Origin: Rebecca billardiae RCC1528
Taxonomy: Eukaryota; Protista; Haptophyta
Length of the DNA stretch: 64,000 nt
Reading direction: 5' to 3'
NCBI GenBank assembly: GCA_965240325.2
Contig: OZ251252.1
Span: 186,001 to 250,000 of the forward strand
In this document: one piece after another, positions 8,397 to 61,377 of the stretch
How the letters are laid out: each line of letters opens with the position of its first letter
How positions within the stretch are numbered: position 1 is the stretch's first letter
The notes under the pieces: generated by a model
Told to the model about the DNA's origin: nothing
Database searches by the model: none
What the model saw: the letters and a program-made list of their open reading frames with translations, nothing else
Position numbers and translations under genes: made by a program

Positions 8397-9308
8397 CGGC
8401 GGGGCCGCGCGGGGCCGCGCCATGTCAAAACGGTGCCCGCGGATCAGCGGCGGCACGTTCTGATACTGCTGTTTCGTCAATGATGGTCATGGTGGTGGCA
8501 CAGCGGCAGCGGCAGCCTGGCGCGACGATGCCGTGGCGTGAGGCGGCGTCCCGCCAGTGCGCTGTCGCAATGTTTCCTGCTCTGCGGTCAGTCGTTCGCG
8601 TGGCCCCGGTTTCAGGCCTCAGGGCCACATATAAATAAATATAATAATATATCTGCGATATTCCGATCCACATTCGCAGTCGCTCGTCGTAGCAGTGTCT
8701 GTAGCAGGCTCAGTAGGAGTCACAAGCCCACGGCCGCTGGCCGGGGCCACGGCCCGCCGGCCGGCCCGCGCCATTACAGTTTACACAGTTAGATCATCTG
8801 ATCACTGCTACTTATATGTGCTACTTATATATATAATAATATATGATGAAAAACGCGCGCTTTATTATTGATATGCTGCTGCTGATTATTCAGTTGGGCG
8901 CGACTGGCGCCGCTCATCACGCGGGTAGGTGGGCCCACTGGCTACTGTGGGATTATAGTGGCGCAGAGCGCGAGCTCATAGCGCGGTGTTCACTTTCGTC
9001 TCGAGCTGGATTCCAGCCCCATGAGATGGCCCCTGGCCTGCCTGGTAAAAAAACCAGTGGTACATGCTGTAAATATAGGGCGTAACGGTGACCCTATTTA
9101 CTTATTGGAAATGGCCTGTGACCAATGTAACGACCATGTAACGGGCGTCTTAAACGTGATATATAGGGTCGACAGACGTCACTTTGATATAGCACTAGTT
9201 GATGAGCTGATCATAGGTCTTCAGCAGCATGCACACTCATTGTCACATATACGGCGTATATGGGTACTCTGAGAATACGGGATAACGACCGTTATACCCG
9301 TGCGTTAC

Positions 9309-10542
9309 TGTCGAAGGGAATGAAGAGCCCGAAACGACTGAGCTAAATCGGTTCGCGCGAACCAATTTAGCTCAGTCGTTTCGGGCTCTTCAACTCCTCG
9401 GACATAACCGTAAGTCTCCTGTGGGACATAATAACCCCGCGAGGGGCTGTAGTCCCGTCCAGTGTTCTGACGGATTTGTTGTCGAGGTTTTTCTCTCCCC
9501 GCCTGGTCTTTCCCAGGTGTTCCACCCTGCGTGCTCGTCTGCTCTGTGGCTTCGTAGAGACTCCGTCTTTTGTGGGCGGTGAGCCCTTCTTTGCTGCTGT
9601 GGCTTTGTGAGGCTCTTTTTGTGTCTTTGTTGTTCACCCGGGCGACTGTACCCGGAGGTTGCGCGTCGCGTACCGTGCTCGTTTTTCTGTCGTCTTTCTT
9701 TGTCGGTCATCTTCTTCGTGCTCCCCTCTTTTCGTTCGTCTTTTTGCCGACTCCTCGCTTTTCATTCCCCCCCGGAGCCGCGAGGCTCTCGCGAGGTCGA
9801 AAGCGCTTCGCGTGAAAGGCCAAGAGTTGCCCGCGTCGGTCGGTCGCTGGATTCGAACAGGTGACTTTACGGTTGTGTCCGAGGAGTTGAAGAGCCCGAA
9901 ACGACTGAGCTAAATTGGTTCGCGCCAACCGATTTAGCTCAGTCGTTTCGGGCTCTTCATTCCCTTCGACACAACCGTAAAGTCACCTGTTCGAATCCAG
10001 CGACCGACCGACGCGGGCAACTCTAGTGGCCTTTCACGCGAAGCGCTTTCGACCTCGCGAGAGCCTCGCGGCTCCGGGGGGGAATGAAAAGCGAGGAGTC
10101 GGCAAAAAGACGAACGAAAGAGGGGAGCACGAAGAAGATGACCGACAAAGAAAGACGACGACCACAAAAAAAAAACGAGCACGGTCCGCGACGCGCAACC
10201 TCCGGGTACAGTCGCCCGGGTGAACAACAAAGACACAAAAAGAGCCTCACAAAGCCACAGCAGCAAAGAAGGGCTCACCGCCCACAAAAGACGGAGTCTC
10301 TACGAAGCCACAGAGCAGACGAGCACGCAGGGTGGAACACCTGGGAAAGACCAGGCGGGGAGAGAAAAACCTCGACAACAAATCCGTCAGAACACTGGAC
10401 GGGACTACAGCCCCTCGCGGGGTGTCCCACAGGAGACTTACGGTTATGTCGAAGGGAATGAAGAGCCCGAAACGACTGAGCTAAATCGGTTGGCGCGAAC
10501 CAATTTAGCTCAGTCGTTTCGGGCTCTTCAACTCCTCGGACA
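9309..10542. mobile_element. Non-autonomous palindromic element H-A-H'-A'-H with 96-bp hairpin units, TG..CA termini and GTTAC target-site duplication
   Basis: H1 9309-9404, H2 9876-9971 (inverted), H3 10447-10542. A 9405-9875 and A' 9972-10446 are diverged reverse complements. GTTAC occurs at 9304-9308 and 10543-10547. Confidence 0.88.
9935..9998 (+). promoter_or_regulatory. tRNA-derived Pol III type-2 promoter (A box + B box); a mirror copy lies on the minus strand at 9912-9849
   Basis: A box TAGCTCAGTCG at 9935-9945 with D-arm GCTC/GGGC. B box GTTCGAATCC at 9989-9998. Confidence 0.6.
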
Positions 10543-13500
10543 GTTACATATACACCGCCATGCTGATCAGCATGGCTACCATAGTATTTCAGACTGTTTC
10601 AGACTGCTCTCGTAGCAACCGTACGGCGTGCATGTGACACCTAAGAATTTTTCCAACCCTTCTACTCTCGAAGGACGAGTCTTAAGGAGCCGTGGGCAAA
10701 GATTGAGCCTAGCCGAGTCGCGGCGCCAGCCCGCCGGCCGTGGTCAAGGCAAGCAGGAGTGGGGCACGCGGCGCCGGGCACATCCAGCAGCCTGCAGCTT
10801 GAACACGGCGGACAAGGTTCGTCGAGTGCTCATCTGTGGCGTTCAAGGCAGGCACTGCTACGCATCGAATGCCTTTTCGCGTGCTCCGACCTAACCGTTG
10901 CTCTACATTGCGACCAAGCTGTGTCCGAGCTGTCCTCAGCTGGACCGTCCTCTGCCTAACTGTGCGCAACGGCCGATTCGTCGCAGCGCCGAGCTGGCTC
11001 GCCGTGGTGTGCGCGCGCGTAGCGATGTGCACTCATCACCGCTTCCTGCGTGGCAGCAGGGCAAGATATGGCTCACTGGTAAGCTGGTACGCCTGCTGAC
11101 CGTGCACCGGCGTCGGTGGCGCCGCCAACGTGCTCGGGCAGGCTCACGAAGGGCTTAAATCACTGTTGAACGGATCAACTGTACTGTCCGCAGCGAGCAC
11201 GGCGCACAGCGGATGACCAAGCAGAGGCGGGGCGACTGCTGTGCGGCCGCGCGGGGGAGTAGCTAGGCTCTTGAGGTACGCGTAGAGCCATGACAGGGCT
11301 CAACAAGCGCATCAGCTGCAATCTACCCGGCTCGACGCGCAGCCCGACCTCGTGCAATCGTGTGGCTCGAGGCCCTCCAAGTGGCTCGTAGCTTCCAAAC
11401 ACCTGAGGAGCGTCGGCACTGAGAGTTGAGTCGAGGCCGGGGAGGTGACAGACGGCACACGCATCCGCTTTGACCGCTGTTTGACCATCAGATCCTTCCC
11501 CAAGTGCCCACGATCGTGTGAACAGCCCCAGCGTTCGGCCACACCGCACAGACTTCCGGGGACCTGACCGACGAGGCGGGCCTCCGCAGGGCCGCAGAAG
11601 TAGCTGGGCATTGCCAGGACACCATGCAGATGCTGTCCCAGTAACGTCCCGGAGTGTCCCAGTTCGTTCACGGGTGTCCCAAGCTCGCGTTGTGCACGCA
11701 TTACAATCCCCAAAGCTGTTCCCGTGTTTGAACGCGCGACTGTCGGCGAGAGATGGCAGACCGGGAAGATGACCCAGGTATGAACCGTTCGCATGGCTCG
11801 TTCCAGAAGGCTACGCAGCATGCCACGGGCGTGCGGCGCAGCGTGCCTCGCATGGCAGGCGGGCAAGCGCGGCGGACAACGCGCTGACGACGCGCACAGG
11901 TCCATCCCGGTCATCGTTTTCGCGATCGATCGGCTTCCCGGACCGGGAGTTCGGCGGCCTGGAAAAAGGGACTTCAGCGCGAGGAAAAGAGCACGGCTGC
12001 GGTCCGAAAAAGCCAGAGAGATTGTGTTTTCATTTTTTAATTGCTGTGGGCCCACCTAAGTCGCGGGCAGCGTCGATGATGGGCGCTTGGCGCGCGCACG
12101 GGGGTGAAAATCCCATTTTCTGGCCTGTCCGGGCGGAAAATCCGGCTGCTCAGATCTGACCGGACCGGGACCCGGACAGCACAGTATCTAGGGACCAGAC
12201 ACTTTTACATCTTCGTTCTCTTCGGATTTGAGCATGGGGCGGCGCCCCATTTGCACAGTCAAAAGACCGCGGGTGTAAAAGCAACCGTTGTCGAGTTCGA
12301 TGTAGCGGCTGGGCGAATTAGTGAATAAAAAAACAATTCACGCGAGACACTTGCGCCCACGGCCGCGATGGCGTGCGCCGTCCACCCACGACGGAGTCGT
12401 GGACGGACATCGCTACACAGCCTACGCGACAGGCGTTGTCGTGATCGAGGTGCCCGTGCCCCTTGTCGATAGCCAAACGATTGGCACGACGACCTGGCAC
12501 CACATCCGCGTCAAGCGCGGCGAGGCCGTGGTCCAGCGCGTGTGCGGCAAGCTGGCCGATGTGCGGACGGCGTCGGGTGGCGCAGGGGCTCCTGCCGATG
12601 CTACCTGGCGGCTGCTGCGGGGCCTGCTGCCGTGGTCGAACCTGAGGCAGAGGGTGAGTCAACCGCGAAGCAGCTCAACGCTTCCGAGATCGAGCTGCGC
12701 GCGGTCGGACCAGATGACGGCCCGCGGCCGTCCAAGCGCACACGCAAGGACGCCTGAGCACACGCGTTCAGTCCGAGCAAAGCCTGGTCGGCGTACGAGC
12801 GCGAGCCAGCTCAGACACGGCACGAGCGCACGCGTGACGGCTCGTACGATGAGCTCGTCGGCTTGGTCATCGGGCTGCTGTCGCTCGTCGCCTCGCTTGT
12901 CACGTCACACTCAGCTGAGCAGAGACATCACTCCCGCCGTTCAGCTGATCGACGAGGACGAGGCGGCCAAGGCGGCGGCGGCTCAAAGGCCTGGAGGAGG
13001 AGCGCAGGAGGAGGAGGAGCTCCCAGCGCTGAGCCTGTGGGGCCGCGCCGAGGCCAGGCACCGCGGCCAGCGGCTGCAGTAGCGGGTGGCTGCCGGACAG
13101 CAGCTTGGCGGCACACGCTCACTCTTACGTCGATCCTCTTGCTCGAGAGTCAAGGCGGCTGGCAAGGTGCAGGCCGCACGCAAGCTTGCTGAGCGTGCGC
13201 AGGCCGAGCCGCAGCTGAGCCCTGAGGGTGCTCGGGACGCCGCGTGCGCAAGCAGGCCGCCTCGCAGCAGATGATGCTTCGCATACTGTAGTGAACTACG
13301 CTGATACTACGACCCGAAAAAATTTCTTCGCACTACGTGCGCGCTTTATTCCCTTTATTGTTTTATTCCTTATACATCGCGTATTAAATACCGCTTTTCC
13401 GCCTCCCCAGTGCAGAATAAGTGCGCCAGAAAATGGGAATTCCACCCACGGCGTGGGGCGCTGCGGCCGACGAGCTGCCGTGCGAAGCCGGTGCGTTGCT

Positions 13501-14394
13501 TGCGTTTCATTGGAACGCTACCATACTCCGCACGTTGCACCTCGCAGCCTTGCTCCTCGCCTCGCCTTTGCCGCGCCTACGATCCACTGCGAGCGAGCGT
13601 CGCCTTAGAAGTGAGCAGCCCTTGCCAGCCATGAGCGCCCGCCTGGCGCACGATGCGATCAACTCTGAGCACGCGCGGCGGCTGGGCGTGGAAGCATGTC
13701 CTTGTTGCAAGCCGTGCCGCCTTGAGCCACCGATCGTACGCTTTGATGTAGTTTTAGACGGGTGTTGACGCCAGTGCCGATCAGCCTGCACCAGCCATGC
13801 ATGCGCAGGAGCGTGAGCGCCCCAGGTGAAGCGATGAATCGGCGTATTCGGGTTGTGCATGGGTGCAGCGACGAGTTCAGCACGTCTGTACGCAAAACTT
13901 GCGCACGTGGCGGTTGCTATGGCATGCCTGAGTAGTTGCCCTGACGAGGGCAAGATGACAAGTCAGCGTGCAAGGTGCATGCCATGCTCATGATCGGGTT
14001 ATCAAGGAGGCGTGGCTGGCGATAAGGTGCATTCATCCTCGCTCAGCCGGAGCGCGTGCCCCGAGTTGATCGCATCCCGCGCCGGGCGGGCGCTCGCGGC
14101 TGACTGAGGCCGACGCGCGCGCTCGGGTCATTTTGAGGCGACGCTCGTCATGCGCGCTGATCGTAGGCCCGGCAAAGTCGACGGGGAGCAAGCTGCAGGG
14201 CGCAGTGCGGGGCATGGCAGCGTTCCGATGCCACGTGCTGCGCGGATGCCCGCAGTCTCGGCATTTGTCGTCGGCGAACTCGTCGGTCCGGACGGTTCCG
14301 GACTGCGTGCATCGTGTCGGTGCGTGCGAATCATTATTCTGTGCCCGACGGCCGAGGACCCGAGCGCACGTGATCGCGCCCAGCGCCGGGGGAC

Positions 14395-15096: not shown

Positions 15097-15410
15097 GCGG
15101 CACCGGGCGCGGGCCGGCGGGCGCGCAGCACGCGGCCGGTCGCCAGTAGCAACGCGCCTGTGCTGAGCGCAGCTCGGCTGATCCCGGCTCCAGCAAGTTT
15201 GCGAGTCCGGGCCGGCATGACGAAGCAGCTACTGTCACGCGAGCGCAGTTGACGCCGCCGTTACTCGAATCCGGGCCAGCCCGATCCGCGTTCAGCGCGT
15301 CAGTGCGCTGCTCACTGCCACTGGTCACTGGAGTGCTCTGACAGTCTCGGCTGTCTCCGACTCCGTCACGCGATTTGCGGCGGTCGCGTTCGAGGAGATG
15401 CGCAACCATA

Positions 15411-15524
<114 letters not shown>

Positions 15525-19528: not shown

Positions 19529-20581
19529 TCAGGCCCTCACCCGTCTGGCCATCACCACTGGTCGTACATGCGATGGCGTCTCCGAGATAGGCGAGGCACT
19601 GGCTGTGACCAGCGGCGCGGGCAGCTGCGATGGTCGCGGCCGCCACGCTGCCAGACTACTGTCCGAGGGTGTGGGTGTGCTCCTGGCGCGCTTCCGCTGT
19701 CGTTTGGCGGCGCTCACTTCTTTGGTGCTCATCACGTCTTGTTCCAGCCCGCGCTTGTGCGCACCACTCCGAAGGCGCTTCATGCCCGCCAGCTTGTGCG
19801 CTTCGCATCGGCTGGCGCGCGCATTGCCCGGCGTGCCGAATGAAGGCACCGTGGTGCAGCCGATGTGGTCACACTTGGAGTTCTTCAGGTCGACCATGCC
19901 GGCCAGCTTGTGCGCAGCGCACCGGCTGGCGCGCGCGTCGCCCGGCATGCCCAATGACGGCCGCGTGGTGCAGCCCTCGTGATCACACTTGGGGCTCTTC
20001 ACGTCGACCATGCCGGCCAGCTTGTGCGCAGCGCACCGGCTGGCACACGCGTCGCCCGCCATGCCGAACGAAGGCCGCGTGGTGCAGCCGGTGTGATCGC
20101 ACTTGCGGGTCATCACGTCGACCATGCCGGCCAGCTTGTGCACAGCGCACCGGCAGGCGCGCGCGTCGCCCGGCATGCCGAATGAAGGCCGCGTGGTGCA
20201 GCCGGTGTGATCACACTTGAGGTTCTTCAGGTCGACCATGCCGGCCAGCTTGTGCGTAGCGCACCGGCTGGCGCGCGCGTCACCCGGCGTGCCGAAGTAA
20301 GGCCGCGTGGTGCAGCCGGTGTGATCACACTTGGGGTGCTTCAGGTCGACCATGCCGGTCAGCTTGTGCGCAGCGCACCGGCTGGCGCGCGCGTCGCCCG
20401 GCATGCCGAATGAAGGCACCGTGGTGCAGCCGGTGTGATCACACTTGGGGTGCTTCAGGTCGACCATGCCGGCCAGCTTGTGCGCAGCGCACCGGCTGGC
20501 GCGCGCGTCGCCCGGCATGCCGAAGTGAGGCCTCGTGGTGCAGCCGGTGCGATCACACTTGCGGCTCTTGAGGTCGACCAT
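19529..20581 (-). CDS. EsV-1-7-type cysteine-rich repeat protein (7 x 38-aa / 114-bp repeats)
   Basis: Repeat KCDHTGCTTRPSFGMPGDARASRCAAHKLAGMVDLKxP with 114-bp periodicity (19889, 20003 ... 20573). Basic NLS-like tail. The 5' end starts within a truncated repeat. Confidence 0.85.
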   Translation of the reverse strand: MVDLKSRKCDRTGCTTRPHFGMPGDARASRCAAHKLAGMVDLKHPKCDHTGCTTVPSFGMPGDARASRCAAHKLTGMVDLKHPKCDHTGCTTRPYFGTPGDARASRCATHKLAGMVDLKNLKCDHTGCTTRPSFGMPGDARACRCAVHKLAGMVDVMTRKCDHTGCTTRPSFGMAGDACASRCAAHKLAGMVDVKSPKCDHEGCTTRPSLGMPGDARASRCAAHKLAGMVDLKNSKCDHIGCTTVPSFGTPGNARASRCEAHKLAGMKRLRSGAHKRGLEQDVMSTKEVSAAKRQRKRARSTPTPSDSSLAAWRPRPSQLPAPLVTASASPISETPSHVRPVVMARRVRA

Positions 20582-20604
20582 GCCGGCCAGCTTGGCGCAG
20601 CGCC

Positions 20605-22068
20605 TTGGTACCGTCCTTGGCCTTGGCCGGCAAGGAGACCGTGACCGTGAGGACGGACCGCGAGGCTCCTCTTGATCAGGGCCGCGCCGGCCGCCGGCCC
20701 GCCTTCCGCCGCAGGCTTCCGCGGAGCTTCCGCGGGGTTATTTGTAGACCCCTTGTTCCGCGCACACTCTACGACGTCGGCCTGCTGCTTTCATGGCCGA
20801 CGTCGGCCGAGCAGGCGGCCGAGCAGGGCCTCGCTGAGGCGCAGTACAACGCGGGCCTGCAGTACACGACGGGCGAGGGCGTGGCGCAGGATTGGGGCGA
20901 GGCGGCGCGCTGGTGGCGGCTGGCCGCCGAGCAGGGCTCTGCCGCGGCGCAGGTCATTCTGGGTACACTGCACCTGGCAGACCAGGCCGTGCCGCGGGAC
21001 GAGGCCGAGGCGGCCCGCTGGTTCAAGCTGGCGGCCGATCAGGGCGTTGCTGAGGCGCAGTACTACCTGGGCGCGCAGCACGGAGAAGGCCACGGCGTGC
21101 CACAGGACTGGGCAGAGATGGTACGCCTGTTCCGGCTGGCGGTCGCGCAGGGCCATGCTCCGGCGCAGTGGAGCCTAGGCCAGTGCTACGCGCAAGGCCA
21201 GGGTGTGCCGCAGGATCTGGCTGAAGCGGTACGCTTGTACCGGCTGGCGGTCGAGCAGGGCTGTGCTATGGCGCAGTGCAGTCTGGGCCAGTGCTACGCG
21301 CAAGGCCAGGGCGTGCCGCAGGATATGGCCGAGGCAGTGCGCTTGTCCCAGCTGGCGGCTGAGCAGGGCGTTGCTCAAGCGCAGCACAACCTGGGCGGGT
21401 GCTACATGCATGGCACTGGTGTGCGGCAGGATACGGGCGAGGCAGTGCGCCTGTACCGGCTGGCGGCCGAGCAGGGCTTTGCTGAAGCGCAGTGCATCAT
21501 GGGCTGGTTCCACGAGCAAGGCACTGGCATGCGGCAGGATATGGAGCGGGCGGTGCGCTTGTACCGGCTGGCGGCCGGGCAGGGCCATGGTCGCGCGCGG
21601 TACAATCTGGGCAGGTGCTACGAGAAAGGCATAGGTGTGCAGCCGCAGTCGGCCGAGGCAAGGCGCTGGTACCGCCTGGCTGCCGAGAGCGGGAGCGCAC
21701 CTGCGCACATGACGCTCGGGTCGATGACGCTGATGGAGGAGCGCGACGTGGAGGAGGGCGCGCGGCTGCTGCGCCGTGCCAAAGAGCTCGACCCCAGCCT
21801 CGGAGGTGTGGTGTGCGATATGCTGGCTGCGACAGCTGGAGTGCCAGAGGTGGCGTCCCAGTGCTGCATCGCCTGCGGACGGACAGGCCGCGGTCTGAAG
21901 AAGTGCGAGCGGTGCCACGTGGCGGTCTTCTGCTCGCGTGAGCACCTGCGCAGCTCGTGGAAGCTGCACAAGCCCTACTGCAACAGGTGGTGCGCGCGCG
22001 CACCGGCACAGGCAGCCTCGTCATCGACATCAACCGCAGCGGCGGCTTCGTCATCATCGGCATGCTGA
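20605..22068 (+). CDS. Sel1-like repeat protein with C-terminal MYND-type zinc finger (start uncertain)
   Basis: About 8 repeats of AEQGxAxAQxxLGxxYxxGxGVxQDxxEAVRLYRLA. CIACG..LKKCERCHVAVFCSREHLRSSWKLHKPYC. No in-frame ATG before the first repeat. Confidence 0.88.
   Translation: MVPSLALAGKETVTVRTDREAPLDQGRAGRRPAFRRRLPRSFRGVICRPLVPRTLYDVGLLLSWPTSAEQAAEQGLAEAQYNAGLQYTTGEGVAQDWGEAARWWRLAAEQGSAAAQVILGTLHLADQAVPRDEAEAARWFKLAADQGVAEAQYYLGAQHGEGHGVPQDWAEMVRLFRLAVAQGHAPAQWSLGQCYAQGQGVPQDLAEAVRLYRLAVEQGCAMAQCSLGQCYAQGQGVPQDMAEAVRLSQLAAEQGVAQAQHNLGGCYMHGTGVRQDTGEAVRLYRLAAEQGFAEAQCIMGWFHEQGTGMRQDMERAVRLYRLAAGQGHGRARYNLGRCYEKGIGVQPQSAEARRWYRLAAESGSAPAHMTLGSMTLMEERDVEEGARLLRRAKELDPSLGGVVCDMLAATAGVPEVASQCCIACGRTGRGLKKCERCHVAVFCSREHLRSSWKLHKPYCNRWCARAPAQAASSSTSTAAAASSSSAC

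Positions 22069-31684: not shown

Positions 31685-31689
<5 letters not shown>

Positions 31690-31731
<42 letters not shown>
31690..31731. repeat. (TA)n microsatellite
   Basis: Directly visible. Confidence 0.98.
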
Positions 31732-31859: not shown

Positions 31860-34800
31860 CTACCGCGCCGCCGCCGGCTGCGCCGCCGGCCGCTGCTCGT
31901 CCGCCTCGCCGCGCGTCCACATCGACTTTCCGTACAGCTCGTTCACGTACTCGCGCGCAGACGGCGAGTCGTCGAGCGGCAGTGTCGCGACGGTGAGCGT
32001 GCGCTGCTCGGCCGTGCGGTGCAGCAGGCCCGGGCGGTGCTGGTCGAGCATCTCGTCCCACGGGAGATCCTGCGGCCGGCGGACGGGCGGGTGGTACGCG
32101 CGCGTGTGTGTGTGTGTGTGTGTGCGGCGCGGCTTCGCGCGCGGGCGCCCCGACGCTGCCGCGCGAGGCAGTCGGGCGGCAGCGGGCGCGCGCAGCCCCG
32201 CGTCACGCGCCGCCGCCTGGGGCCGCACGCCGCCAAGGGTGCCTCCGCGCCGGCGCGCGCGCCCCGCGCCCTCTTGGCCGCGCGCCGGGCAGGGCGCACC
32301 TCCGAGTAGGTGTAGGGCGCCACGCCGTCCAGCTCGAGCAGGTCCACCCACGCCACGTCGTATCCGAGCCGCTTCACCGCGCGCACGTACCCGCCACGCG
32401 TTTCGTCAATTGGGTGCCGCGGCAGCGTGGAGCACGCGTGCACGACCGGGATCCCCATGTGCGCCTTGAGCGCCTCGGCCTGGCGCATGATCTCGGCCCA
32501 GAGCGGCTGGCGGTACCCACCCGACGTGAAGAAGAGCGCGTCGCAGTAGATCACCGGCTGGCGCGAGTCCGAGCGCACAAGCAGCCGGATGAGCGAGCGC
32601 GCGAGCACGGTGCCGGCCGCCTCGTCGGTGACGATCAGCGCGCGCACGTGCGACTGCAGCGCGTAGCCCATCAGCGCCTGCGGGCGGAGGGGGCGGCGGG
32701 GGCACAGCATGACTCGATGCTGCAGCATGGCTGCCGCCGCCGCGCGGCTCGGCGGCCACCGCCGCGTCCGCCGGCGCCGCCGCCCGCCGCGCGCGCGGGG
32801 CGCGGCACCTTGTTGAACTTGTTGCCCATCGTCGAGGTGATGCGCAGGCAGCTCCCCGCGTCCTCGCCCACCATGAAGAGCGTGCGCGCGCTGTTGCTCC
32901 CCGGACAGTCCGGGTGGTACCATCGGCCGAGCACGGCCGCGTCGATGGCGGCGAGGTGTCGCGCGTTGGCCGCGTCGCGGCGTCGGATGTCCTGCGTGCT
33001 CTCCTCCGAGCAGCCGAAGAGGGAGCGGAGCCAGCGCTGCACCACGGGCGCCATCTCCTGCGCCAAGCGCGCACGCGGGCGGGGGCACCAGCCGGCGGGC
33101 GCCGGGCCGAGGCGCCGGGCACGAGAGCGCACGCGCGCGCGCGCGTGAGCGCGGCGCGTGGCACGCGCCGCGCCGCGCCGTAGGGTTAGGGCTGCCGTAG
33201 GGTTGTGAGCGCGCGCGCACGGGGTCTGCGAGGTTGTCCTCGTAGTACCGGAAGAGCAGCTCCGGGTTGCGCCAGCGCAGCATCGCCTCGTTCACCTCGG
33301 CCGCGCGAGATCCAATCTCGTCGGCGGGCGCGCCCAGCAGCACGCCGAGCGCCGCGTGCGCACCCTGCTGCACGAGGGAAGGCGGGATGGCGCGGAGGCG
33401 CGTGCGCGCGGCGGCGGCGAGCACGGCGTCGTGCCGCACGAGCTGCGCGCGCACCTGCGCCGAGACGCGCCCCGTGCGGCTGTACAGCCCTGCGGAGGTC
33501 GCGTCGCGCAGCGACTGCAGAAGCGTCGTCTGCGCCTGGATGCACTTGACGGCGCCGAGCAGCTGCTGCCCCTGCAGCCCCGCGCGTGAGAGGCCCACCA
33601 TCGAGCCGACCAGCCGGCCGACGTCCGCGATCGTCGCCCACATGTACGCGCGCGTCGTCGCCTTGTGCACGAGGAACTGCGTGCGCGGCAGCCCCTGCGC
33701 CGCGCGCGAGGCGAGCGCGCGCTTGAACAGCAGGTCGAGCATCCAGTACAACAAAGACGAGACGGTCTTCTCCGCGGGGCTCGCCTCGGCGAGCGCGCAC
33801 AGCAGCAGCGGCACGCCGGACACGTCCAGGTCGAGCGGCGCCTCGAGCTCGTCGTCGTCGTCGTCCTCGGCCTCGGCCGCGTGCGCGGCGGCGGCGCCCG
33901 CGTCGGCCTCGCCGGGCTCGGCGGCGGCGGCGCGCGCCCCCGCCGGCGCGTCCTCCGCCGCACGCAGCGCGGCCGCCGCCGCCTCGATCGCGGCCGCGTG
34001 CCCGCGCGCCAGCCCGCCGTCGTCCGGCGGCTGCTGCGTCTGCGCGGCGAGATACGCAATCTGGAGATACGGGTACACCATCCGCATGCGCTCGTACGCG
34101 CGCAGCTGCACGTCGTCGGCGGCCGCCGGCCCGCCCGCGCCGCCGCCGCGCGCCGCGGCGAACTGCTCGGCGGCGACGCCCGCCGCGTCCTCGAACGCGG
34201 CGCGGATGTCCACGCACTCCACCAGCTCGAAGAGCGGCGAGGAGCGCGCGTACGCGCCCGCCGCGAGCACCTCGAGCGCGCGCGTGCGCTGGTCCGTCTT
34301 AACCTTCTCCACGACCAGCCGCGTCGCCCAGAGCAGGTCCGAGCTCATCTGCAGCGCGCGCGCGCCGCGTCGGCGCGGGCGTGTGTGCGTGGGGCGGCGA
34401 GGGGGCGTGGGCCGGGTGGGTCCGGGGATGCGAGCGGCCGTGCCTTCGCGCGGGCGCACCTGCCGGGGCAGCGTGCAACCCTATCCTCCCCTTCACCCAC
34501 CCCAACCCTCGACCAGCAGCACAGCCCTCCCCTCCCCTTCACCCACCCCAACCCACCCTACCCTAACCCTACGCACCTGCCGGGGCAGCGTGAGGTACGC
34601 GACCAGCAGCACTCGCACCTGCCGGGGCAGCGTGAGGTACGCGACCAGCAGCACAGCCCTCCCCTCCCCTTCACCCTCCCCTAACCCTACCCTAACCCTA
34701 CGCACCTGCCGGGGCAGCGTGAGGTACGCGACCAGCAGCACAGCCCTCCCCTCCCCTTCACCCTCCCCTAACCCTACCCTAACCCTACGCACCTGCCGGG

Positions 34801-42017: not shown

Positions 42018-43513
42018 GGCGGGCCGTTACGAGTCGACGATGGCGGCCTGCCGGGCACCGGTGGGCACTGGGCAGCCGCTCGCGGCTCTTTTGCTCGGCG
42101 GGGCCCCGGGCTTATCTCCTAAACCCCTGGACGGGTAAATCCAGGTCCCCCCCCCCCCTGGAGTCCGGGAGGCCGCGACCAGTGTCGTCGCTGAGTCCGG
42201 GCTGCGTCGCCAAGCGGCGGCTGGAGGAGCGACGGGCGCGTGAGCGTGGCGGCTCGCGGGTATCACCGGCCTTGTGGCACGTAGTCGCGCGTGTGCGCGC
42301 CGTCGCATTGCGTGTACAACACCAGACGCGGACTCCCATGCCATTGCCACGCCCTGAAGACTGCCTCCGCACCTTGTGTCTGCGTTCAAATGCTCACGAA
42401 GCTGGCTCGCGGCGCTTGTGGCAGTGCCTAGCGTGCAAGAAGCTGCTACAAGTGGTGCCATAGCACTCAAGACCCGGCCGTCACGCATGGGGCTAGTCGG
42501 GTAGGCTTATCTGTGCTATGGGCGACCAGGAAAGCAGCTCGATCAGTGATCCATGACTCTGGAAATGTCGTGCGGCACACACCGTTTGAAACGCGAGAGC
42601 GCGGCGCGTGCCTAACGTGACCTCTTTCAGGCGGCGTGCGGGGTCGGAAGTCCAGCGCGCGTGTACGTATACATTGTGCATACATACCCCCACCTCCCCG
42701 AGCCATCTCATCGCGCCCAGGCTCCCCACATGTCGAGTCGGCTGGCAGGAAGTGACCGCTCGGCACAAGGTCAAGCCCGCAAGTGGTTGCGCGCGCCAAC
42801 CGCAAGGGCGACGAGCGAGGAGAGACATCAGCGGGCTGCTTTGTCGACGTTCCCCTACGTCTTGGGGCCCGCCCCGCCCAGCGTGCCGCCACGGAACGCC
42901 CCGCAATCGACCGCTAGGACGCTCGGCGAGCACGCACCCACCGCCGCCACGGCAGCCGTCCCCCGAGCCAGGGGTGTAGGGGACAAGCCCCGGGCTTTGT
43001 ATCTCGCGATTCTCGCCGCGCCGTCGTCGGCAGGGAGTCAGCATGGCAACCATGAGGCGGCGGGCGGGCCACGCGGTACTTGTATTGGACCGATCCGGCG
43101 ACTCGGTGCTGACCCCAGTCCGACCCTAGTCCGCACGCATCAGTGACATCACAGTCATCACGCAAAGCCATCACACTCCCCACCTGGTAGACCTCGACCC
43201 TCCAACTCCAAGTGGCATCCGCTTCTCGGGAGGCGCCCATGCGACGGCCGCTGCCGTATACTTGGCAGACCTCGGGCGCGCAGCGGCGGCACCGAGTCTC
43301 ACGCGGCCCGCATCCGGGGTGCCCACTGCCGGATACCGCAGGCCGACCATCTGCGCCAAAGGTGGCAAGCGCGCCACGCAGCAGGCGGGCGAGGCAAGCT
43401 GCTGCGTACTTTGCAGCGGTGCACGGTGCGGCGCGCGCCGGCGCGCGCCGCCGGCGCCGGTGAGCACGGGCCGCGGCCGGCGTGCTGTGACTGATTCTAT
43501 GCTTTGAACAGGG

Positions 43514-44866
43514 CTCCTGATTCGTTGGCGGCAGTGCCCGACCGTCGACAAGTCGGCGTTGGTGGCAGAGCACCGCCCGGACTTTGCCCCGGTCGAGCGA
43601 GGGCGAGGCGGTGCAGGCAGCAGGTCCGGATGTTGGTCACGACGACAGGACCCAGAAGTCGCCAATGAATTTCGGGTCCAAAAAGGTGGTGCCCGCGCAT
43701 CGGGGGGGGATTGACGAGAGTCTTGTGAGTCTCAAGGGGTAAAAATCGCACTCATGTACCCGCCAGCATATGCTTCAGACAATTCGTCGGGTAAAGTTTA
43801 CCACTTTGGGTCGAATTTATCCCTTCCGGGGCTTGGGCGAGGAAACTCGCTGGGGAGATTCCCGCCGTTCTGAACCACGATGGCCACGTGACAACCCACG
43901 AGTCATGCTCGACGCGACCGCCTTGCCTGAGGGGCTATCGGACGGCGTGCTGCGCCTCTACGACCGCGACGTGCGTGACGTAGAGAAGCGCACCGCCAAA
44001 GATGGGTTCTCACGCATGGCGAAGCTCACCCTGCCAGGTGGCGCGTGTCTGACGCGAACTGTGGCTCTGTGGCCGACGGCCGTGACGGATGCAGGCCTTG
44101 CTTCTCCACAGGGAACCCCCGCCGGTGGCAGCCGGCGGCGCAAGGGAGGCCGTGGCGCGCCTACTCGTGCTCCCCCGCCGACCGCCCAGCGCGCAGCGCG
44201 CAAGCCGGCCCCGCCGGTTCGCCCGCCCGCCGCGCAGGGCATGGACGCTGAGGTGCTGCAGGCAAACGACGAGCAGCAGCACTCTCAGAAGCGGAAGAAG
44301 AAGCCCCGGCGTGGGAAGCGCGGGCAACGGCGCGACGCCGAGGGCCGACGGATTCGTTCTCCATCGAGCCGTCGCTCCTCGGCGAGCCGCGCCGTCAAGG
44401 AACGCCAGGCGCGCAAGGCGGCGCGCCTGGCGCCGACCGCTGCACCGCCCACGCCAGCCCCTGCTGCCCCCCTCCACGATGACCGAGACTCGCCCCCGGG
44501 CGACGACTTGGACGACGAGGAGGCGTCGCCGCAGCGGGCAAAGCGCACCCTGGACGACGCCGCAGCGCCAGCCGCCGCCAGCCAGCCAGCTGGCTCGAGC
44601 AGCAAGCGCGTACGCGACCGCCCGGGGAGCACGGGGCAGGTACGACCAGCTGCTACCCGCGGCTGAGTCTGCCAGCTGACATCCGGACCTGCACTTTCGC
44701 CCTTGCTCGGGGCACAGCAGGTCCATGCGAGCCGCGCAGCGCAGGTGGATCGCGCTTCAGCAGCTCAAGGCCGCGCTCAAGCTTTACGATCGCGGTGCAG
44801 GCTATGCTCTGCCACCAACGCCGACTTCGTGTCGACGATCGGGCACTGCCGCCGACGAATCAGGAG
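43514..44866. mobile_element. Putative TE remnant: imperfect inverted repeats enclosing a basic ORF (43770-44666)
   Basis: 43514-43572 is the imperfect reverse complement of 44805-44866. 43596-43634 matches 44679-44710 in reverse. Confidence 0.5.
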
Positions 44867-45013
44867 ACCCGCGTCGTCCTACCTGTGTCGTTAAATCATA
44901 GAATGGGTCGGCGGTTGATTACTGCGAGCGGCTTGTATTTTGTTTCAACACTCGAAGGCCTCGAATCATACATTCCTTCATCAACGATTCAGAGGTGGAT
45001 CGACAATAGAGTT

Positions 45014-47955: not shown

Positions 47956-49773
47956 CGTGCGGTATCTTAACTGTACGGGCGTGCATGCCTGAGCTGTACA
48001 TGTGCGACGGTCGTGCGTCTCTTATTTAAACAACGGCCCGCCATAATAATTCTTGGTTACAAAAGGAACGTAGCCTGCAGTGTGGCGCCCGCGGCAGCGT
48101 CGCGTGGGCGCGCACTGCCCCGCTGCCGAGACGTGCTGAACGTGCCTATGAGCGAGGCGCCTGACGTGGAATGGCGCTGCGTGTTCTCTCGCGGCTGCTC
48201 GGCTGTGCATACACTTCGCCTGCGCGGGCGCCTCCACGGCCGAGCGCGCGCCCCCAAGCACCGCCAGGGCTGCCGCGCAGGAGACTTGGCTGCTGCGCCG
48301 AGGCCAGCGCACAACAAGGTGATCCACCAACCTGCGTCGCCCACGCCGGTCTGCGGCGTGGGCGCAGACTGATCGGCGCGCCCCGCAATCTGCTCGGCGG
48401 GTCAGCTGCTCGCACACCCTTCGGGCAAGGCGCGCGACGCGCACGGGCTGGTCGTCTGCGGCAGGAGATGGTGCGCGCGAAGTGTGAGTGAGCGCGCCAT
48501 GTTGCGCTGCGCCGCTCGGAACGTGTGCGCGCGTACTTGTCACAGCCACGCGCGAGAGAGGGCTCGGGTGCGGGGAGAAACAGTGTGGCAAGTGGCTCCT
48601 CTCGCGAGCCATAAGCCACCACGCTCGTCAGCATCAAGTCAGTCCTCTCGCATGCGCGCATGCACAGGTGCGTTCGAACACACGCGCTCGCGCGAGCGCG
48701 CGAGTGCGTGGCACCACAAGCTGGAGCGTGCGAGTCGCTGCACGGCGTAGCTGATGCGCAGTGTGCCCACGGCGCGCAGTACTGTACGCGGTCTCGTGCG
48801 CCAGCGCCGTTCAATGAATGCGAGCAGGGCGGGGCCGGCATGGCGCTTGGCGTCGAACGGAGCCAGCAGCCCTAGTCGAGCTCGACTATGGGGGTCGGCG
48901 TGGATGCGGCAGCCAGCGCCCGACGACGGTCAGAGAGCATATGCTGGCGGGTTGGCAGCCAGCGGGTCGGCAGCTCACGTGCTGACTGCTACTCCGACTA
49001 GGGCTGCACCCTTCCATGGCAACCACTGGCCTAGTCGGAGTAGCCGACTCAGCACGTGAGCATCGGCAGCAGCAACACAGTACTGGCCACGCCGGTGGCC
49101 GGCTCAATGGCCGGTGACGAGCGTGGATTGAGCCCTGATGCGCCACTGGGACAGCAACCAGAGCTCGCGATGCGGCTACTAGGCCCACAGCGCGAGCCGC
49201 ATCTGGCCGCAGCGGGGCGCATTCGGCACTCCGCGCTGGCCTCATCCGCGGTGGCGAGCGCTTGTGGCACGGTTGCCGCCCGACGAGCAAACCGCTCAGC
49301 CCCCAGCACGAGAGCTGGGCGCCCGCGCGTGCCGCCCTGGCTGGAGGGCTGCGCGCCTCTGCGTCTACTGGCGCGGCCCGGCGCGGCGTGCTCGCGGGCT
49401 TAGTCGGCCGGTCCTGGTGGGGCTCCGGACGGACACACGATAATTATGCCCATCGAAGCCCCGCGAAGACCAGGGAATGACAGCTAATTTCCGCCAAGAT
49501 TCCGTCACAGCTACAGCCTGGGCGCGGGAATACCCACCGCGACTATTCATCACATACCTGGCGTATACATCAGTAGCCTGCTCTGCGCCAATCAGGCTGC
49601 GCAACGGCGACTCAACTCATCGCGGCAGCTCGCCGACCGGGAATCTTTGCCGAGCAGCGGTCTCGTCAAAAACACCCGACCCCCACAAGACTCTCGTCTG
49701 GATACGCCCCGGCGCGGGCACGCCCACGCACACCGCGCGCAGGGCGCTGCGCCACCAGCCCCGCCGAGCGCGC

Positions 49774-52313
49774 ATGGCCGCCACCGCCGACGTGGCTTCC
49801 CTGCAGAAGCCACTCGACGTCAGCCAGGTGCAGATGACGCCGACTGGGTCCTCGCCCGAATCGCTCGACATGCGGGAGCCTCTGCCGTCATCTGGGTCGC
49901 AGGAGCTGGGCCCGGCGCCCAAGTCGCCGGTGGACCACGACCACGCGGTCGCCAGCCGCGCCGCCATTCGTAAGCTCGAGCACGGCCACAAGCGCGGCTT
50001 CTACGCGCCCGCCAGGAAGCTGCTGGAGTGGGGGGCGGTGCAGTACGGCCGACGTGAGCGCAGCGGCGCGCGGCGCTCGCGCCGCTGCGGCGGGCTGATG
50101 GGAGATGGGCGCGCTGCCGTGTGCGGGTGGGGTGGTGGCGGGTGGGTGGTGGGTGGTGTGCGCGGCGTGGGGCGCCGAATGCCGCGCCAGGCTCACGCGG
50201 CCTCGCTTACGCGGCCGTCCCCCACCCCGACCCCCGCTCCGCGCGGCCCGCGCGCGCGCTTGTGCACAGACGCGTCGTGGTCGGACCTGTTCTGGGACCT
50301 GATCTTCGTGGGCTCGGCGTTCAAGGTTGGCGACTACTTCAAGAGCAACATCCAGTACGCGCACGGCCCGGTCGTGCTGATGGGCGCGGGCCTCACCATC
50401 GTCAACACGTGGTCGCACCTGCTGCAGTACAGGTGCCGCTTCGAGGCCAACTCCGTCTTCCACAAGATGGTCGATGTGCTGGAGGGGCTGCTGTGCGCGG
50501 CGCAGGCGCACAACGTGGTGAAGGACCCGGCCGCATTCGAGGCGTACAACATGTACGCCTTCGTCGCGATGGTGCTGCTCTGCCGCGCCGTGCAGGCCTT
50601 CCGCCGTCTCGAGCTCGTGCTGACGAAGCCGCCGCCGGCCGAGTACGGCTCCACGCGGTACGCGGCGCTGGACATGCTGGTGCGCACGCTGGTCGAGATG
50701 TCGCTGCTGTGCGTGTGCTTCGCGTTCGAGTCGGTGTACGCGCTGATGACCATGCTCATCTCCGTGTGGGCCATGCAGGTCACGCTCTTCACCGCGCCGG
50801 CGCTGCTGGTACGCGAGCGCTGCGCGCGCGCGCGCCGCGCTGCGTGCGCGCGTGGCGCGCGCTGACGCCGCGGCACCGCCCGTCGCGCGCGCGCGCGCGC
50901 GCGCCCGCCGCGTGCTCGCAGGGCTGGTACCAGAAGAAGCACCTCGTGCCGATCCACGTCGAGTACACCGTGCACCGCATGGGCGAGATGGTGATGCTGA
51001 TGCTGGGCGAGGGCATGTTGTCGCTCGTGCTCTCAGAGACGGTTGTGGACACCACGGAGATCGCCGAGTGCGGCTCCAAGTGCTGGGTGGGCAAGCTCAA
51101 GTCGGGCGTGTCCTTCGCGTCGGGGTACGTGCTCCTCGCCGCGCTCATGTACCTCTACTACCGCTGCAACCGCTTCACCCGCCACCACCACGCCGTGCGC
51201 CGCTCGGCCGCGCGCGGTATCCTCTGGAACAACCTGCACTGGCCGCTGTGTCTCTCACTGATCGGGGCGGGGGTGTGCCTCAAGGCGATCCAGCCGTACG
51301 CGGCCAAGCCCAGCGTGGAGCGGCCGTACATCAACGCGTTCGGCGCCTCGACCGCGTACTCCATGCTCACCATCTGCATCCAGCAGCTGCTCCACCCCGG
51401 ACTGGGTACTTTCCTGGCCGCGCCGCAGAAGCGCGCCAAGCGCGTCGGCCTCTTTGCCGCCAAGATTGCAATCTCGCTCGGGCCGGTGGCGATGAGCTGG
51501 TTCCCCGAGAGCACGGAGGGCTGGGTGTACCTGTTCTACACCGCGCTGCTCGGCATCGCCGCCGTCGTGCTGCTCACCCTCGAGAAGAGCAAGTCCATCG
51601 AGAAGGGCCTCTGGTTCTTCGCCGACCACCGGCCTGCCGCGTCGCAGCGCGGCGGCACGCGCCGCGACGCCATGTACCACTCGCGCAAGTCGATGGCGAT
51701 TCGGAATGAGCTGGCGCGCGCGGAGGCGGCGCAGGGGCGCACGTCTTCGGACTCGTCGGACGTCGAGCTGCACACCGACCACGCGCCGCCCGCCGACGCC
51801 GGCGCCGGCGCGGGCGCGGGCGTCGCGCAGCCGCACCGCCGCTCCGCGCGCACGTACAACTCGGCGGCCGCGCGCGTCGCTGACGCGGTCGCGCGCGCGA
51901 CGCACGCGGCGCCGGCCGGGCGCGTCGGGATGAGGCGGCCGTCCGACCCCTCGCACAACGGCGCGCTCGACCGGCGGCCGATGCGCGCGCACGACCCGCT
52001 CGAGGCGCTGCGCGAGGACGCGCGCGCCGAGGGCATGGGCCTGCGCCGCCCGCGCCACTCGTTCGACGCGCGGCGCGCCGGCATGGCTGGCGTCCGCTAC
52101 GGTTTTGACAAGCCGAGCGGCGGGCTCCAGCCGCGCTGGCCGACGGCCGCGGAGATACTGGCGGCGGCGGAGGATGCGCCGTCGGCGTCGGACTCGGACT
52201 CGGATTCGGACGACTCGGTCGCGCTCGAGGTGCCGCACAACCCGTTCGCCATCCGCGAGTCGAAGCGCTCGGAGGCGGAGGACGTCAACTCCGCCGTTGT
52301 GCTCACCGGCTGA
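49774..52313 (+). CDS. LtrA (low-temperature requirement A)-like multi-pass membrane protein
   Basis: Introns 50054-50269 and 50809-50921. Motifs WSDLFWDLIFV and HVEYTVHRMGEMVMLMLGEG. Confidence 0.78.
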
Positions 52314-54752: not shown

Positions 54753-54822
54753 GCCGAGGCTCAGCTGTGGTTAGTGAGCCGGTGTCACTAACCACAGCCG
54801 AGGCTCAGCTGTGGTTAGTGAG
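54753..54822. repeat. Direct-inverted-direct mini repeat (alternative hairpins)
   Basis: GCCGAGGCTCAGCTGTGGTTAGTGAG at 54753 and 54797, with inverted TCACTAACCACAGC at 54785-54798. Confidence 0.85.

Positions 54823-61163: not shown

Positions 61164-61377
<214 letters not shown>

Follow-up and report, generated by a model that had tools for sequence, protein, structure and literature searches.

Results

Organization of the locus

Within the window, a stretch of 64,000 nucleotides from what is likely a haptophyte microalga of the Pavlovales, lies a 1,234-bp unit (9309-10542) with TG..CA ends and GTTAC on both flanks. It is made of two head-to-head, gene-less cores placed between three near-identical 96-bp hairpins, in the order H-A-H'-A'-H, and its features are as follows.

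9072..12000, no strand assigned: host repeat that received the element; several slightly different X1 contigs cover the stretch
9304..9308, no strand assigned: left target-site duplication, GTTAC, 5 bp
9309..9404, plus strand: H1, an imperfect hairpin of 96 bp with TG..CA, repeating H3 in direct orientation
9405..9422, plus strand: D segment at the tail, a degenerate version of the head D segment in inverted orientation, with 3 differences over 19 columns and without a B box
9405..9875, minus strand: core A, 471 bp, non-coding; the minus strand is the A-rich, T-poor one
9837..9919, minus strand: head of monomer 1, putatively tRNA-derived and read on this strand, with an A box from 9912 and a B box from 9858
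9876..9971, minus strand: H2, the central hairpin, 96 bp, exact reverse complement of H3, common to both monomers
within 9876..9971, both strands: A boxes of H2, one per strand, facing outward
9928..10010, plus strand: head of monomer 2, putatively tRNA-derived, with an A box from 9935, a B box from 9989 and 9970-9989 corresponding to tRNA positions 34-53
9972..10446, plus strand: core A', 475 bp long, the inverted counterpart of A
10447..10542, plus strand: H3, 96-bp hairpin, TG..CA
10543..10547, no strand assigned: right target-site duplication, GTTAC, 5 bp

This is the layout that the original prediction had drawn, and the coordinates of the three hairpins, the relation of H3 to H2 and to H1, the two cores, the imperfect inverted repeats at the core ends (the D segments), the flipped hairpin/core junctions between the monomers and the outer boundaries at GTTAC, which are not shiftable, were all recovered. 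The hairpins had also been described as near-perfect; this is true of the 28-bp arms, which are perfect around a 16-nt spacer, but 14 of the 96 positions of H3 are mismatched within the hairpin. Elsewhere in the window, perfect arms outside microsatellites reach at most 19 bp, and the folding z-scores of H1 (-13.5) and H2 (-14.8) were equalled by 0 of 200 shuffles. H1 and H3 differ only at position 46 (95/96 identical), where the change found in H1 makes the palindrome better, a result with a chance of about 0.05.

The two cores differ by 2 substitutions and 4 indels (6, 9, 1 and 2 bp), and both carry private changes, which is compatible with two templates or with divergence after insertion. 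Each monomer ends in terminal inverted repeats, of 114 and 115 bp. In an LTR-like pattern, identity between the end hairpins of a monomer extends to the TG/CA edge, beyond which the adjoining 19 bp differ: there are 0 and 1 differences in the 96 positions of H, as against 3 in the 19 of D (Fisher p 0.004 and 0.014). Flip and flop terminal hairpins, together with an inner D repeat, are present at this one locus.

A putative tRNA-derived head and a strand bias

To judge from its sequence, the head of each monomer is tRNA-derived and straddles the H/core edge, a feature that the original prediction had missed, as it had the strand bias described below. The A box is placed in the hairpin arm and the B box 54 bp farther in the core; in the head of monomer 2 the H/core edge cuts through the anticodon. 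An A+B pair at 54 bp was matched by 20/3000 shuffles with lenient patterns, 2/3000 with medium and 0/3000 with strict ones, the patterns having been picked after the sequence had been seen. Between the boxes, 12 nt correspond in register to tRNA positions 37-48. Against a profile built from 79 bystander tRNAs these score 8.2, the median of real tRNAs being 8.0; this score was reached by 9/20000 shuffles and 4/20000 random 15-mers of the window. Moreover, the 12-nt A-box word of the element occurs 7 times in the Helenus consensus file. Against a tRNA origin, the spacing of 54 bp departs from the 44-47 bp measured in 112 of 119 tRNAs. A search of the element with the Rfam tRNA model gave no match to E 10, ARAGORN called no tRNA in it, and alignment of the whole head to tRNAs was no better than chance (equalled by 95/300 and 83/300 shuffles). 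In Rfam as a whole nothing reached the gathering score, below which there were generic hairpin matches only.

The strand 3' of the head is extremely A-rich and T-poor. Its AT skew of 0.52 was reached by 0 of 1236 other windows, and its composition over 300 nt (40% A, 5.7% T) was reached by 0 of 2488. It has no T4 runs; 97% of shuffles likewise have none, and this absence is not independent evidence, as composition alone produces it. Together with the Pol III head of putative tRNA origin, this strand bias suggests an RNA stage. With the remains of a tRNA gene at its head, the element is likely copied through RNA.

A 125-aa frame (10084-10458) was considered and rejected as a coding sequence: its length was reached by 44/2000 shuffles, its counterpart in the other arm is shifted and counts 106 aa, and it had no Pfam or protein match. 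Scanning of 33 long and 78 shorter frames of the window revealed no reverse transcriptase, integrase, transposase, HUH domain or polymerase; the 78 were drawn from a list of 98, of which the remaining 20 mostly lay in host genes or had been scanned before. A hammerhead-like motif, of the kind that Penelope-like elements and retrozymes carry in the terminal repeat, was also set aside, as it lacks C3 and stem I of the consensus, and no Rfam hammerhead match was obtained.

Primer sites and fold-back topology

We found no primer-binding site (PBS) after H: no TGG lies within 6 nt of it in 6 of 6 junction readings, and the best complementarity to a panel of 232 non-host (viral, bacterial) tRNAs, 9 nt, was equalled by 193/500 and 216/500 shuffles. 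There is no polypurine tract (PPT) either, the longest purine run in the 30 nt before any H being at most 6 nt. The earlier view is upheld that the element, lacking both sites, is not a standard TRIM; nor is it a plain MITE.

A single fold-back yields the order H-A-H'-A'-H in 0 of 8 cases. The order can be obtained by two rounds of fold-back, from a hairpin-capped circle, or by joining flip and flop strands. Two fold-backs succeed only from the T-rich strand, which has the polarity of cDNA; a capped circle with one cap repeated gives the exact order from 2 of 4 cap choices; and annealing of a flip strand to a flop strand also gives the dimer.

Insertion and relatives

The dimer was inserted whole: it is bounded by TG..CA and flanked by a 5-bp duplication. 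An empty site with a single GTTAC, which the original prediction had proposed to look for, is carried by a contig of run X1 that starts at 10543. Its 22 loose letters correspond to the left flank (9282-9303) with 2 mismatches (0/100 shuffles), fewer than the 31 letters required by our bridge criterion, and the contig could stem from a paralogous copy of the repeat hosting the element. Since an empty site exists, the insertion looks young at this locus. The TG..CA ends, the 5-bp duplication and the empty site bear out the suggestion of a non-autonomous element with integrase-type insertion, and a borrowed LTR-type integrase is the likely agent.

The element is not single-copy, the outcome that had been named as a threat to the prediction. 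Core pieces, some partly diverged, were found in contigs from runs of two studies. One X2 contig is identical to 10183-10447 (265 nt), an X2 contig is, like A, without the 9-bp insertion, and one contig with a core piece also bears the end of another transposon. A diverged relative in run X1 has its core tail joined to an altered H that still starts with TG; 10 changes are listed in H positions 3-24, the TG being unchanged, and the inner arm antisense to the A box has at most 4 substitutions. Other samples show a single junction, that between the core tail and the TGTCG edge; no contig covers a head junction, which would tell direct from inverted H in ordinary monomers. Taken with the empty site, the diverged core copies indicate an inserted member of a family. 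Among the public contigs examined none spans the dimer or covers H1 or H2.

Elsewhere the searches were negative. Runs X3, X4, X5 and X6 held no piece of the element, viral contigs gave 0 matches to 4 element patterns, and there was no match in plasmids. The single match in prokaryote genomes was a 16-nt chance hairpin; in metagenomes one pattern search gave 0 matches and another 14 chance matches with no similarity past the motif. Five viral matches to the A-box plus anticodon pattern were discarded, as they are not tRNAs. The element motifs are absent from the searched supplements of the Tisochrysis TE papers, and searches of the freely accessible literature brought up no element with this combination of features.

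Discussion

A possible retroelement with hairpin ends

Our preferred reading, held tentatively and at something less than an even chance, is a Pol III-transcribed mini-retroelement, Helenus/TRIMp3-like, whose self-complementary hairpin LTR would serve as both end-piece and primer and which would be inserted by a borrowed integrase. Transcription would start inside the head hairpin, and the A-rich strand would be read through the core and the tail hairpin. Such an RNA would be devoid of the outer half of the head hairpin, so that the inverted tail hairpin would serve to complete the cDNA, in the manner modelled for DIRS-1, and the ends would stay identical. The terminal hairpin of the finished strand would prime the second strand, replacing the PPT, and the dimer would arise from repeated fold-back or from flip and flop strands paired via their 3' hairpins. 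TG..CA would be presented to the integrase at either edge of H. The weakest step would be first-strand priming, for which the model has no explanation. It also counts against this reading that standard LTR reverse transcription leaves the LTRs direct. Only one complete locus was seen, and the search for a helper element in the window came up empty.

The wider proposition is that there exists a class of integrase-inserted retroelements with inverted, self-complementary LTRs, in which a tRNA-born Pol III RNA would be reverse-transcribed without PBS or PPT, the hairpin end would regularly prime and flip, and flip, flop and dimer forms would be inserted with 5-bp duplications by a helper supplying reverse transcriptase and DDE integrase. 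We regard it as doubtful.

The retroelement reading has to be weighed against several others. A cut-and-paste composite of the Ginger2/Tdd kind, which seems to us rather unlikely, would make the monomers MITEs with inverted repeats of 114-115 bp and H an end usable from either edge, the dimer forming by recombination at H before a joint move and the tRNA piece being a passenger. No PBS or PPT would be required, and the portions of Bao et al. (2010, PMC2836005) available to us give inverted repeats of 45-297 bp, TGTNR termini and 5-bp duplications made by TDD-4 and TDD-5. KolobokP (PMC9587614, likewise in part) provides a eukaryotic precedent, a composite-like DNA transposon whose terminal repeats are self-inverted and which forms multimers. 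Such a composite leaves the tRNA head across the H edge and the strand bias unexplained, and gives no account of why H is homogenised and D is not. Moreover, only the flip end of H matches TGTNR; in the diverged relative the part of H adjoining TG is the most altered, just TG being kept at the visible edge; and the Tisochrysis TE papers searched list Copia and Gypsy without mentioning Ginger. An ordinary tRNA-promoter TRIM would instead have the direct structure H-core-H and an LTR palindromic by chance, this locus having arisen once, through an error of reverse transcription or through a pair of inversions within a tandem array. The direct repeats H1 and H3, TG..CA and the 5-bp duplication agree with it, the dimer as a whole, though not each monomer, having direct terminal repeats with a duplication in the range of 4-6 bp; tandem arrays are common among TRIMs in the sources as far as available, and the junction of the core tail to the TGTCG edge in other samples fits a direct monomer equally well. 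Both boxes and tRNA positions 37-48 are present, the A box in H and the B box in the core, and the whole-tRNA tests are negative. Against a TRIM, PBS and PPT are both absent; one core end is the inverted copy of the other; the diverged relative has kept its antisense A-box arm; and at least two rare events are required. We consider this explanation unlikely.

Less probable again is a DNA-only replicon, rolling-hairpin or hairpin-capped and linear as in parvoviruses or poxviruses, whose concatemer would be cut at the H edges and inserted by an integrase. The hairpin with its inner D-like repeat does resemble AAV ITRs, which come as flip and flop and have two D sequences where units join (in the accessible parts of those papers), and the exact order can come from two fold-back rounds or from a capped circle with one repeated cap. 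This route is disfavoured by the failure of one fold-back (0/8), by the lack of Rep or polymerase in the window and of matching ends in viral contigs, by the flipping here of the whole of H and not, as in AAV, of the inner palindrome only, and by the tRNA head and strand bias, which it does not explain. The original prediction had combined hairpin-primed copying with integrase insertion; the insertion half is supported, whereas its parvovirus-type DNA route is one candidate among several that fit, and no HUH domain or polymerase was found in the window. Finally, we hold it very improbable that one monomer was mirrored during sequencing or assembly. The dimer is indeed unspanned and H1 and H2 are uncovered by any contig examined, but an independent contig joins the flanks, each of them unique, through one GTTAC, 6 differences separate the arms, the letters of A' are confirmed by X2 and X1, and the X2 contig without the 9-bp insertion resembles A. 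A mirror is further disfavoured because H1 and H3 are direct repeats, which it could not produce.

Significance

The definition of integrase-inserted retroelements calls for LTRs in direct orientation, a primer site for a tRNA and a polypurine tract, and inverted-repeat retroelements (DIRS) rely on a recombinase. If the retroelement reading is true, integrase-type ends, inverted hairpin repeats and a tRNA-derived promoter without primer sites would bridge the gap between both groups. It would also bear on the relation of Ginger-type inverted ends to LTRs, a question left open in the available text of PMC2836005. If the locus is an ordinary TRIM rearranged once, it would still be the first tRNA-promoter TRIM candidate in haptophytes within the literature searched.

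Comparison with known systems

As far as the accessible parts of the papers cited here go, no single system shares all features of the element. AAV and parvoviruses are not known to make a fixed 5-bp duplication. Their ITRs (PMC7671332, PMC5714925) resemble our ends in having a terminal hairpin with an inner D, flip and flop forms and a dimer junction reduced to a single hairpin with two D; they differ in the flipping of the inner palindrome only and in the absence of a tRNA head, and AAV requires Rep and a terminal resolution site. KolobokP (Kojima and Bao 2022, PMC9587614) likewise has terminal repeats with inverted ends of their own, mobile alone, and multimers inside one duplication. Unlike our 96-bp repeats and head-to-head units, its repeats measure about 450 or 660 bp and are direct, its multimers are head-to-tail, and its inverted ends reach up to 18 bp. 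Ginger2/Tdd (PMC2836005) shares TGT..ACA ends, long inverted repeats, an integrase-type enzyme and, for TDD-4/TDD-5, the 5-bp duplication; the values expected of that group, about 45-300 bp and 4-5 bp, include those found here (114/115 bp, 5 bp). A self-palindromic repeat, a dimer and a Pol III head are not described there, the target preference given is RTATAY, and the window has no matching transposase. DIRS-1 (Malicki et al. 2020, PMC7192593) has inverted terminal repeats, a transcript without terminal sequence whose restoration from the other repeat has been modelled, and a linear single-stranded cDNA, to which our element, on the preferred reading, can be likened. It differs in its tyrosine recombinase, internal complementary region, non-identical repeats and trinucleotide junction, whereas our element has TG..CA with a 5-bp duplication and no separate region joining both outer edges.

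The LTRs of Helenus TRIMs derive from tRNA, and duplications of 5 bp are recorded for them in fungi and a plant (Kojima 2024, PMC10886601); the main text of that paper contains none of 'palindrom', 'inverted', 'hairpin' and 'haptophyt'. In Helenus the tRNA-like sequence lies within direct LTRs accompanied by PBS and PPT, whereas here it straddles the edge of a 96-bp hairpin in head-to-head units without either site. Like Helenus, our element has a 5-bp duplication and a length within 311-1263 bp, tandem arrays being known there as well, and like Helenus/TRIMp3 and Cassandra (PMC7215508) it is short and non-coding, with putative tRNA-derived Pol III boxes and TG..CA terminal repeats.

Structure of the dimer

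The anatomy set out in the original prediction was borne out. Three 96-bp hairpins (H) separate two inverted core copies, A and A′ (471 and 475 bp), which are 2 substitutions and 4 indels apart.

Hairpins of the unit
9309-9404: H1 hairpin, 96 bp
9876-9971: H2 hairpin, 96 bp
10447-10542: H3 hairpin, 96 bp

H2 and H3 are exact reverse complements, and H1 differs from H3 at a single position, 46. The hairpins are far more stable than shuffled sequence (folding z of -13.5 and -14.8), and the perfect arms of H reach 28 bp, against 19 bp for the longest other non-microsatellite arm in the window, where no further copy of H was found. Each monomer (a core with its bordering hairpins) carries a terminal inverted repeat of 114-115 bp, made of H and an imperfect 18-19-bp segment, D, at the adjoining core end. 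Within monomers, the H pairs show 0 and 1 differences per 96 positions, whereas the D segments differ at 3 of 19 positions, starting from the first base past the CA (p 0.004 and 0.014 versus H). Near-identical H ends beside diverged D ends indicate that H, unlike D, was copied as one unit over its full length; to judge from these sequences, H behaves like an LTR, though an odd one. The sole change in H1 makes the palindrome better (chance about 0.05), which hints that H may fold in the cell.

The surrounding window is about 70% GC and carries long open frames of eukaryotic genes, including a Sua5 protein whose best named match is from Pavlovales sp. CCMP2436 (60% identity), which makes a pavlovophyte haptophyte the likely host. 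Other self-complementary features include a 26-bp inverted repeat pair at 12099-13450, whose members are 88% complementary, lie 1.3 kb from each other and may mark a further non-autonomous DNA transposon, a ~220-bp inverted pair at 13508-14230 (73% identity) and a short nested palindromic repeat at 54753-54821 with perfect 14-bp arms. Despite the GC content, long self-complementary dinucleotide runs occur at 15410-15520, which is (AT)n, 31689-31731 and 61166-61370. An EsV-1-7 repeat protein (19532-20737, minus strand) adjoins a Sel1-repeat MYND-finger protein (20572-22065, plus strand), both made of tandem repeats. LtrA-like matches at 49444-52310 are split over two plus-strand frames, which suggests an intron or a frameshift.

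Insertion and related copies

Parts of the element region are present in 2 of the 6 sequencing runs examined (X1 and X2, from two studies), with no match lying over H1 or H2 or spanning the dimer. The empty GTTAC site that the original prediction had proposed to seek was found in X1. This contig begins at the right GTTAC, present once, and its 22 extra letters, all that lies left of the joint, match the left flank with 2 mismatches (0 of 100 shuffles were as good); it possibly derives from a paralogue of the repeat in which the element sits. That repeat, at 9072-12000 and beyond, has matches in several X1 contigs, which carry dispersed substitutions, and the genes to its left are uncovered.

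An X2 contig matches 10183-10447 with 0 differences and an X1 contig matches 10171-10455 almost unchanged; X1 also carries a diverged version of 9979-10143. At 10402-10498, an X1 contig that departs from the window by 13 substitutions and 6 gap letters joins the core tail (the end away from H2) to an altered H, in which 10 listed changes fall within H positions 3-24 and the TG is untouched. The inner arm of this H carries no more than 4 substitutions over its 28 bp, since the changes without an assigned position, toward the ends of the contig, are 4 substitutions and 3 inserted letters. Another X2 contig runs out of the core into a different transposon's end, which in the window lies at ~44882-44904, implying additional core copies. 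Core pieces in both runs, some of them diverged, answer the question of family versus single copy in favor of a family, and at the level of sequence the element is an inserted unit with related copies. The ~1.4-kb element at about 43494-44904, whose right end matches the insert in the X2 core copy, has long imperfect inverted ends and frames with no Pfam match.

A tRNA-derived head

At the head, the core end that meets H2, an A-box match occurs on each strand within the inner arm of H2, and a B-box match follows 54 bp further, in the core. With patterns chosen after inspecting the sequence, a pair like this turned up in 20 of 3000 shuffles under the lenient setting, in 2 under the medium and in 0 under the strict one. 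A second test scored 12 nt lying between the boxes, those corresponding to tRNA positions 37-48 in the register set by the B box, on a profile of 79 tRNAs picked independently of the box patterns. This stretch scores 8.2 (median of real tRNAs, 8.0); among 20000 shuffles 9 attained that value, and among 20000 15-mers drawn at random from the window, 4 did. The boundary of H and core falls within the anticodon, about 8 additional bases follow the D arm, and no intact tRNA was found at the head by Rfam, ARAGORN or full-length alignment. By sequence likeness, the head is tRNA-derived and has lost its cloverleaf. Elsewhere, an ARAGORN tRNA of undetermined type (32118-32211) lies within long open frames and is probably spurious.

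Downstream of the boxes the strand holds an extreme excess of A and very little T, beyond any of the 1236 and any of the 2488 control windows. The core tail repeats the head in antisense, in degenerate form and without the B box. We infer that the element may be transcribed by Pol III.

Origin of the dimer

The element is real, mobile and unusual, and is known from one full locus, no helper element having been found in the window. When H and core were modelled as oriented blocks, none of the 8 cases of a single fold-back reproduced the order seen here. The order was obtained when flip and flop monomer strands paired via their 3′ hairpins, and after two rounds of fold-back provided that the start was the T-rich strand of an inverted-repeat monomer. 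A hairpin-capped circle in which one cap is repeated also yielded it, with 2 of the 4 possible choices of cap. The order thus requires hairpin-based copying or recombination, and these outcomes do not single out the parvovirus-type replication of the original prediction. A and A′ both carry private changes relative to the contigs, and the arm differences favor no route.

The best explanation, which we hold tentatively, is a Pol III-transcribed non-autonomous retroelement that is built along the lines of Helenus/TRIMp3 and has, as its terminal repeat, a hairpin able to serve from either edge. Transcription would begin inside H, the cDNA would be finished on the inverted tail H, as in the DIRS-1 model, and second-strand synthesis would be primed by the terminal hairpin; dimers would come from fold-back or flip/flop pairing, and an LTR-type integrase would insert any unit bounded by H. 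Insertion, family, tRNA-derived head and H-end identity are the established parts of this explanation, and the remaining steps are proposed. That such a retroelement forms a new class is possible but doubtful.

A Ginger2/Tdd composite is unlikely; elements of that group have the 5-bp duplication in common with this one, and their TGTNR termini are matched by one edge of H and not by the other (PMC2836005, PMC10045372). To an ordinary TRIM, rearranged once, we give somewhat less credence still; neither a PBS nor a PPT was found, the comparison tRNAs not being the host's own. Replication as a DNA rolling hairpin, one of several routes compatible with the block order, is more doubtful again. An artefact is very improbable, and about as little is left to all other explanations together.

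Comparison with known systems

No published account of this combination of features was found in the literature searched, Repbase and subscription journals being outside its scope. Helenus TRIMs have a tRNA-like sequence within direct LTRs, with PBS and PPT present (PMC10886601). The element works most like TRIMp3 but shows neither of these two defining features, PBS and PPT, and is therefore not classed with it. Tandem arrays are described for Cassandra (PMC7215508) and head-to-tail multimers for KolobokP (PMC9587614), the latter unlike the inverted cores seen here. DIRS-1 shares inverted repeats and, with the route proposed, a single-stranded cDNA, but its integration mark differs (PMC7192593). 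AAV likewise has hairpins in flip and flop forms, together with D sequences (PMC7671332, PMC5714925).
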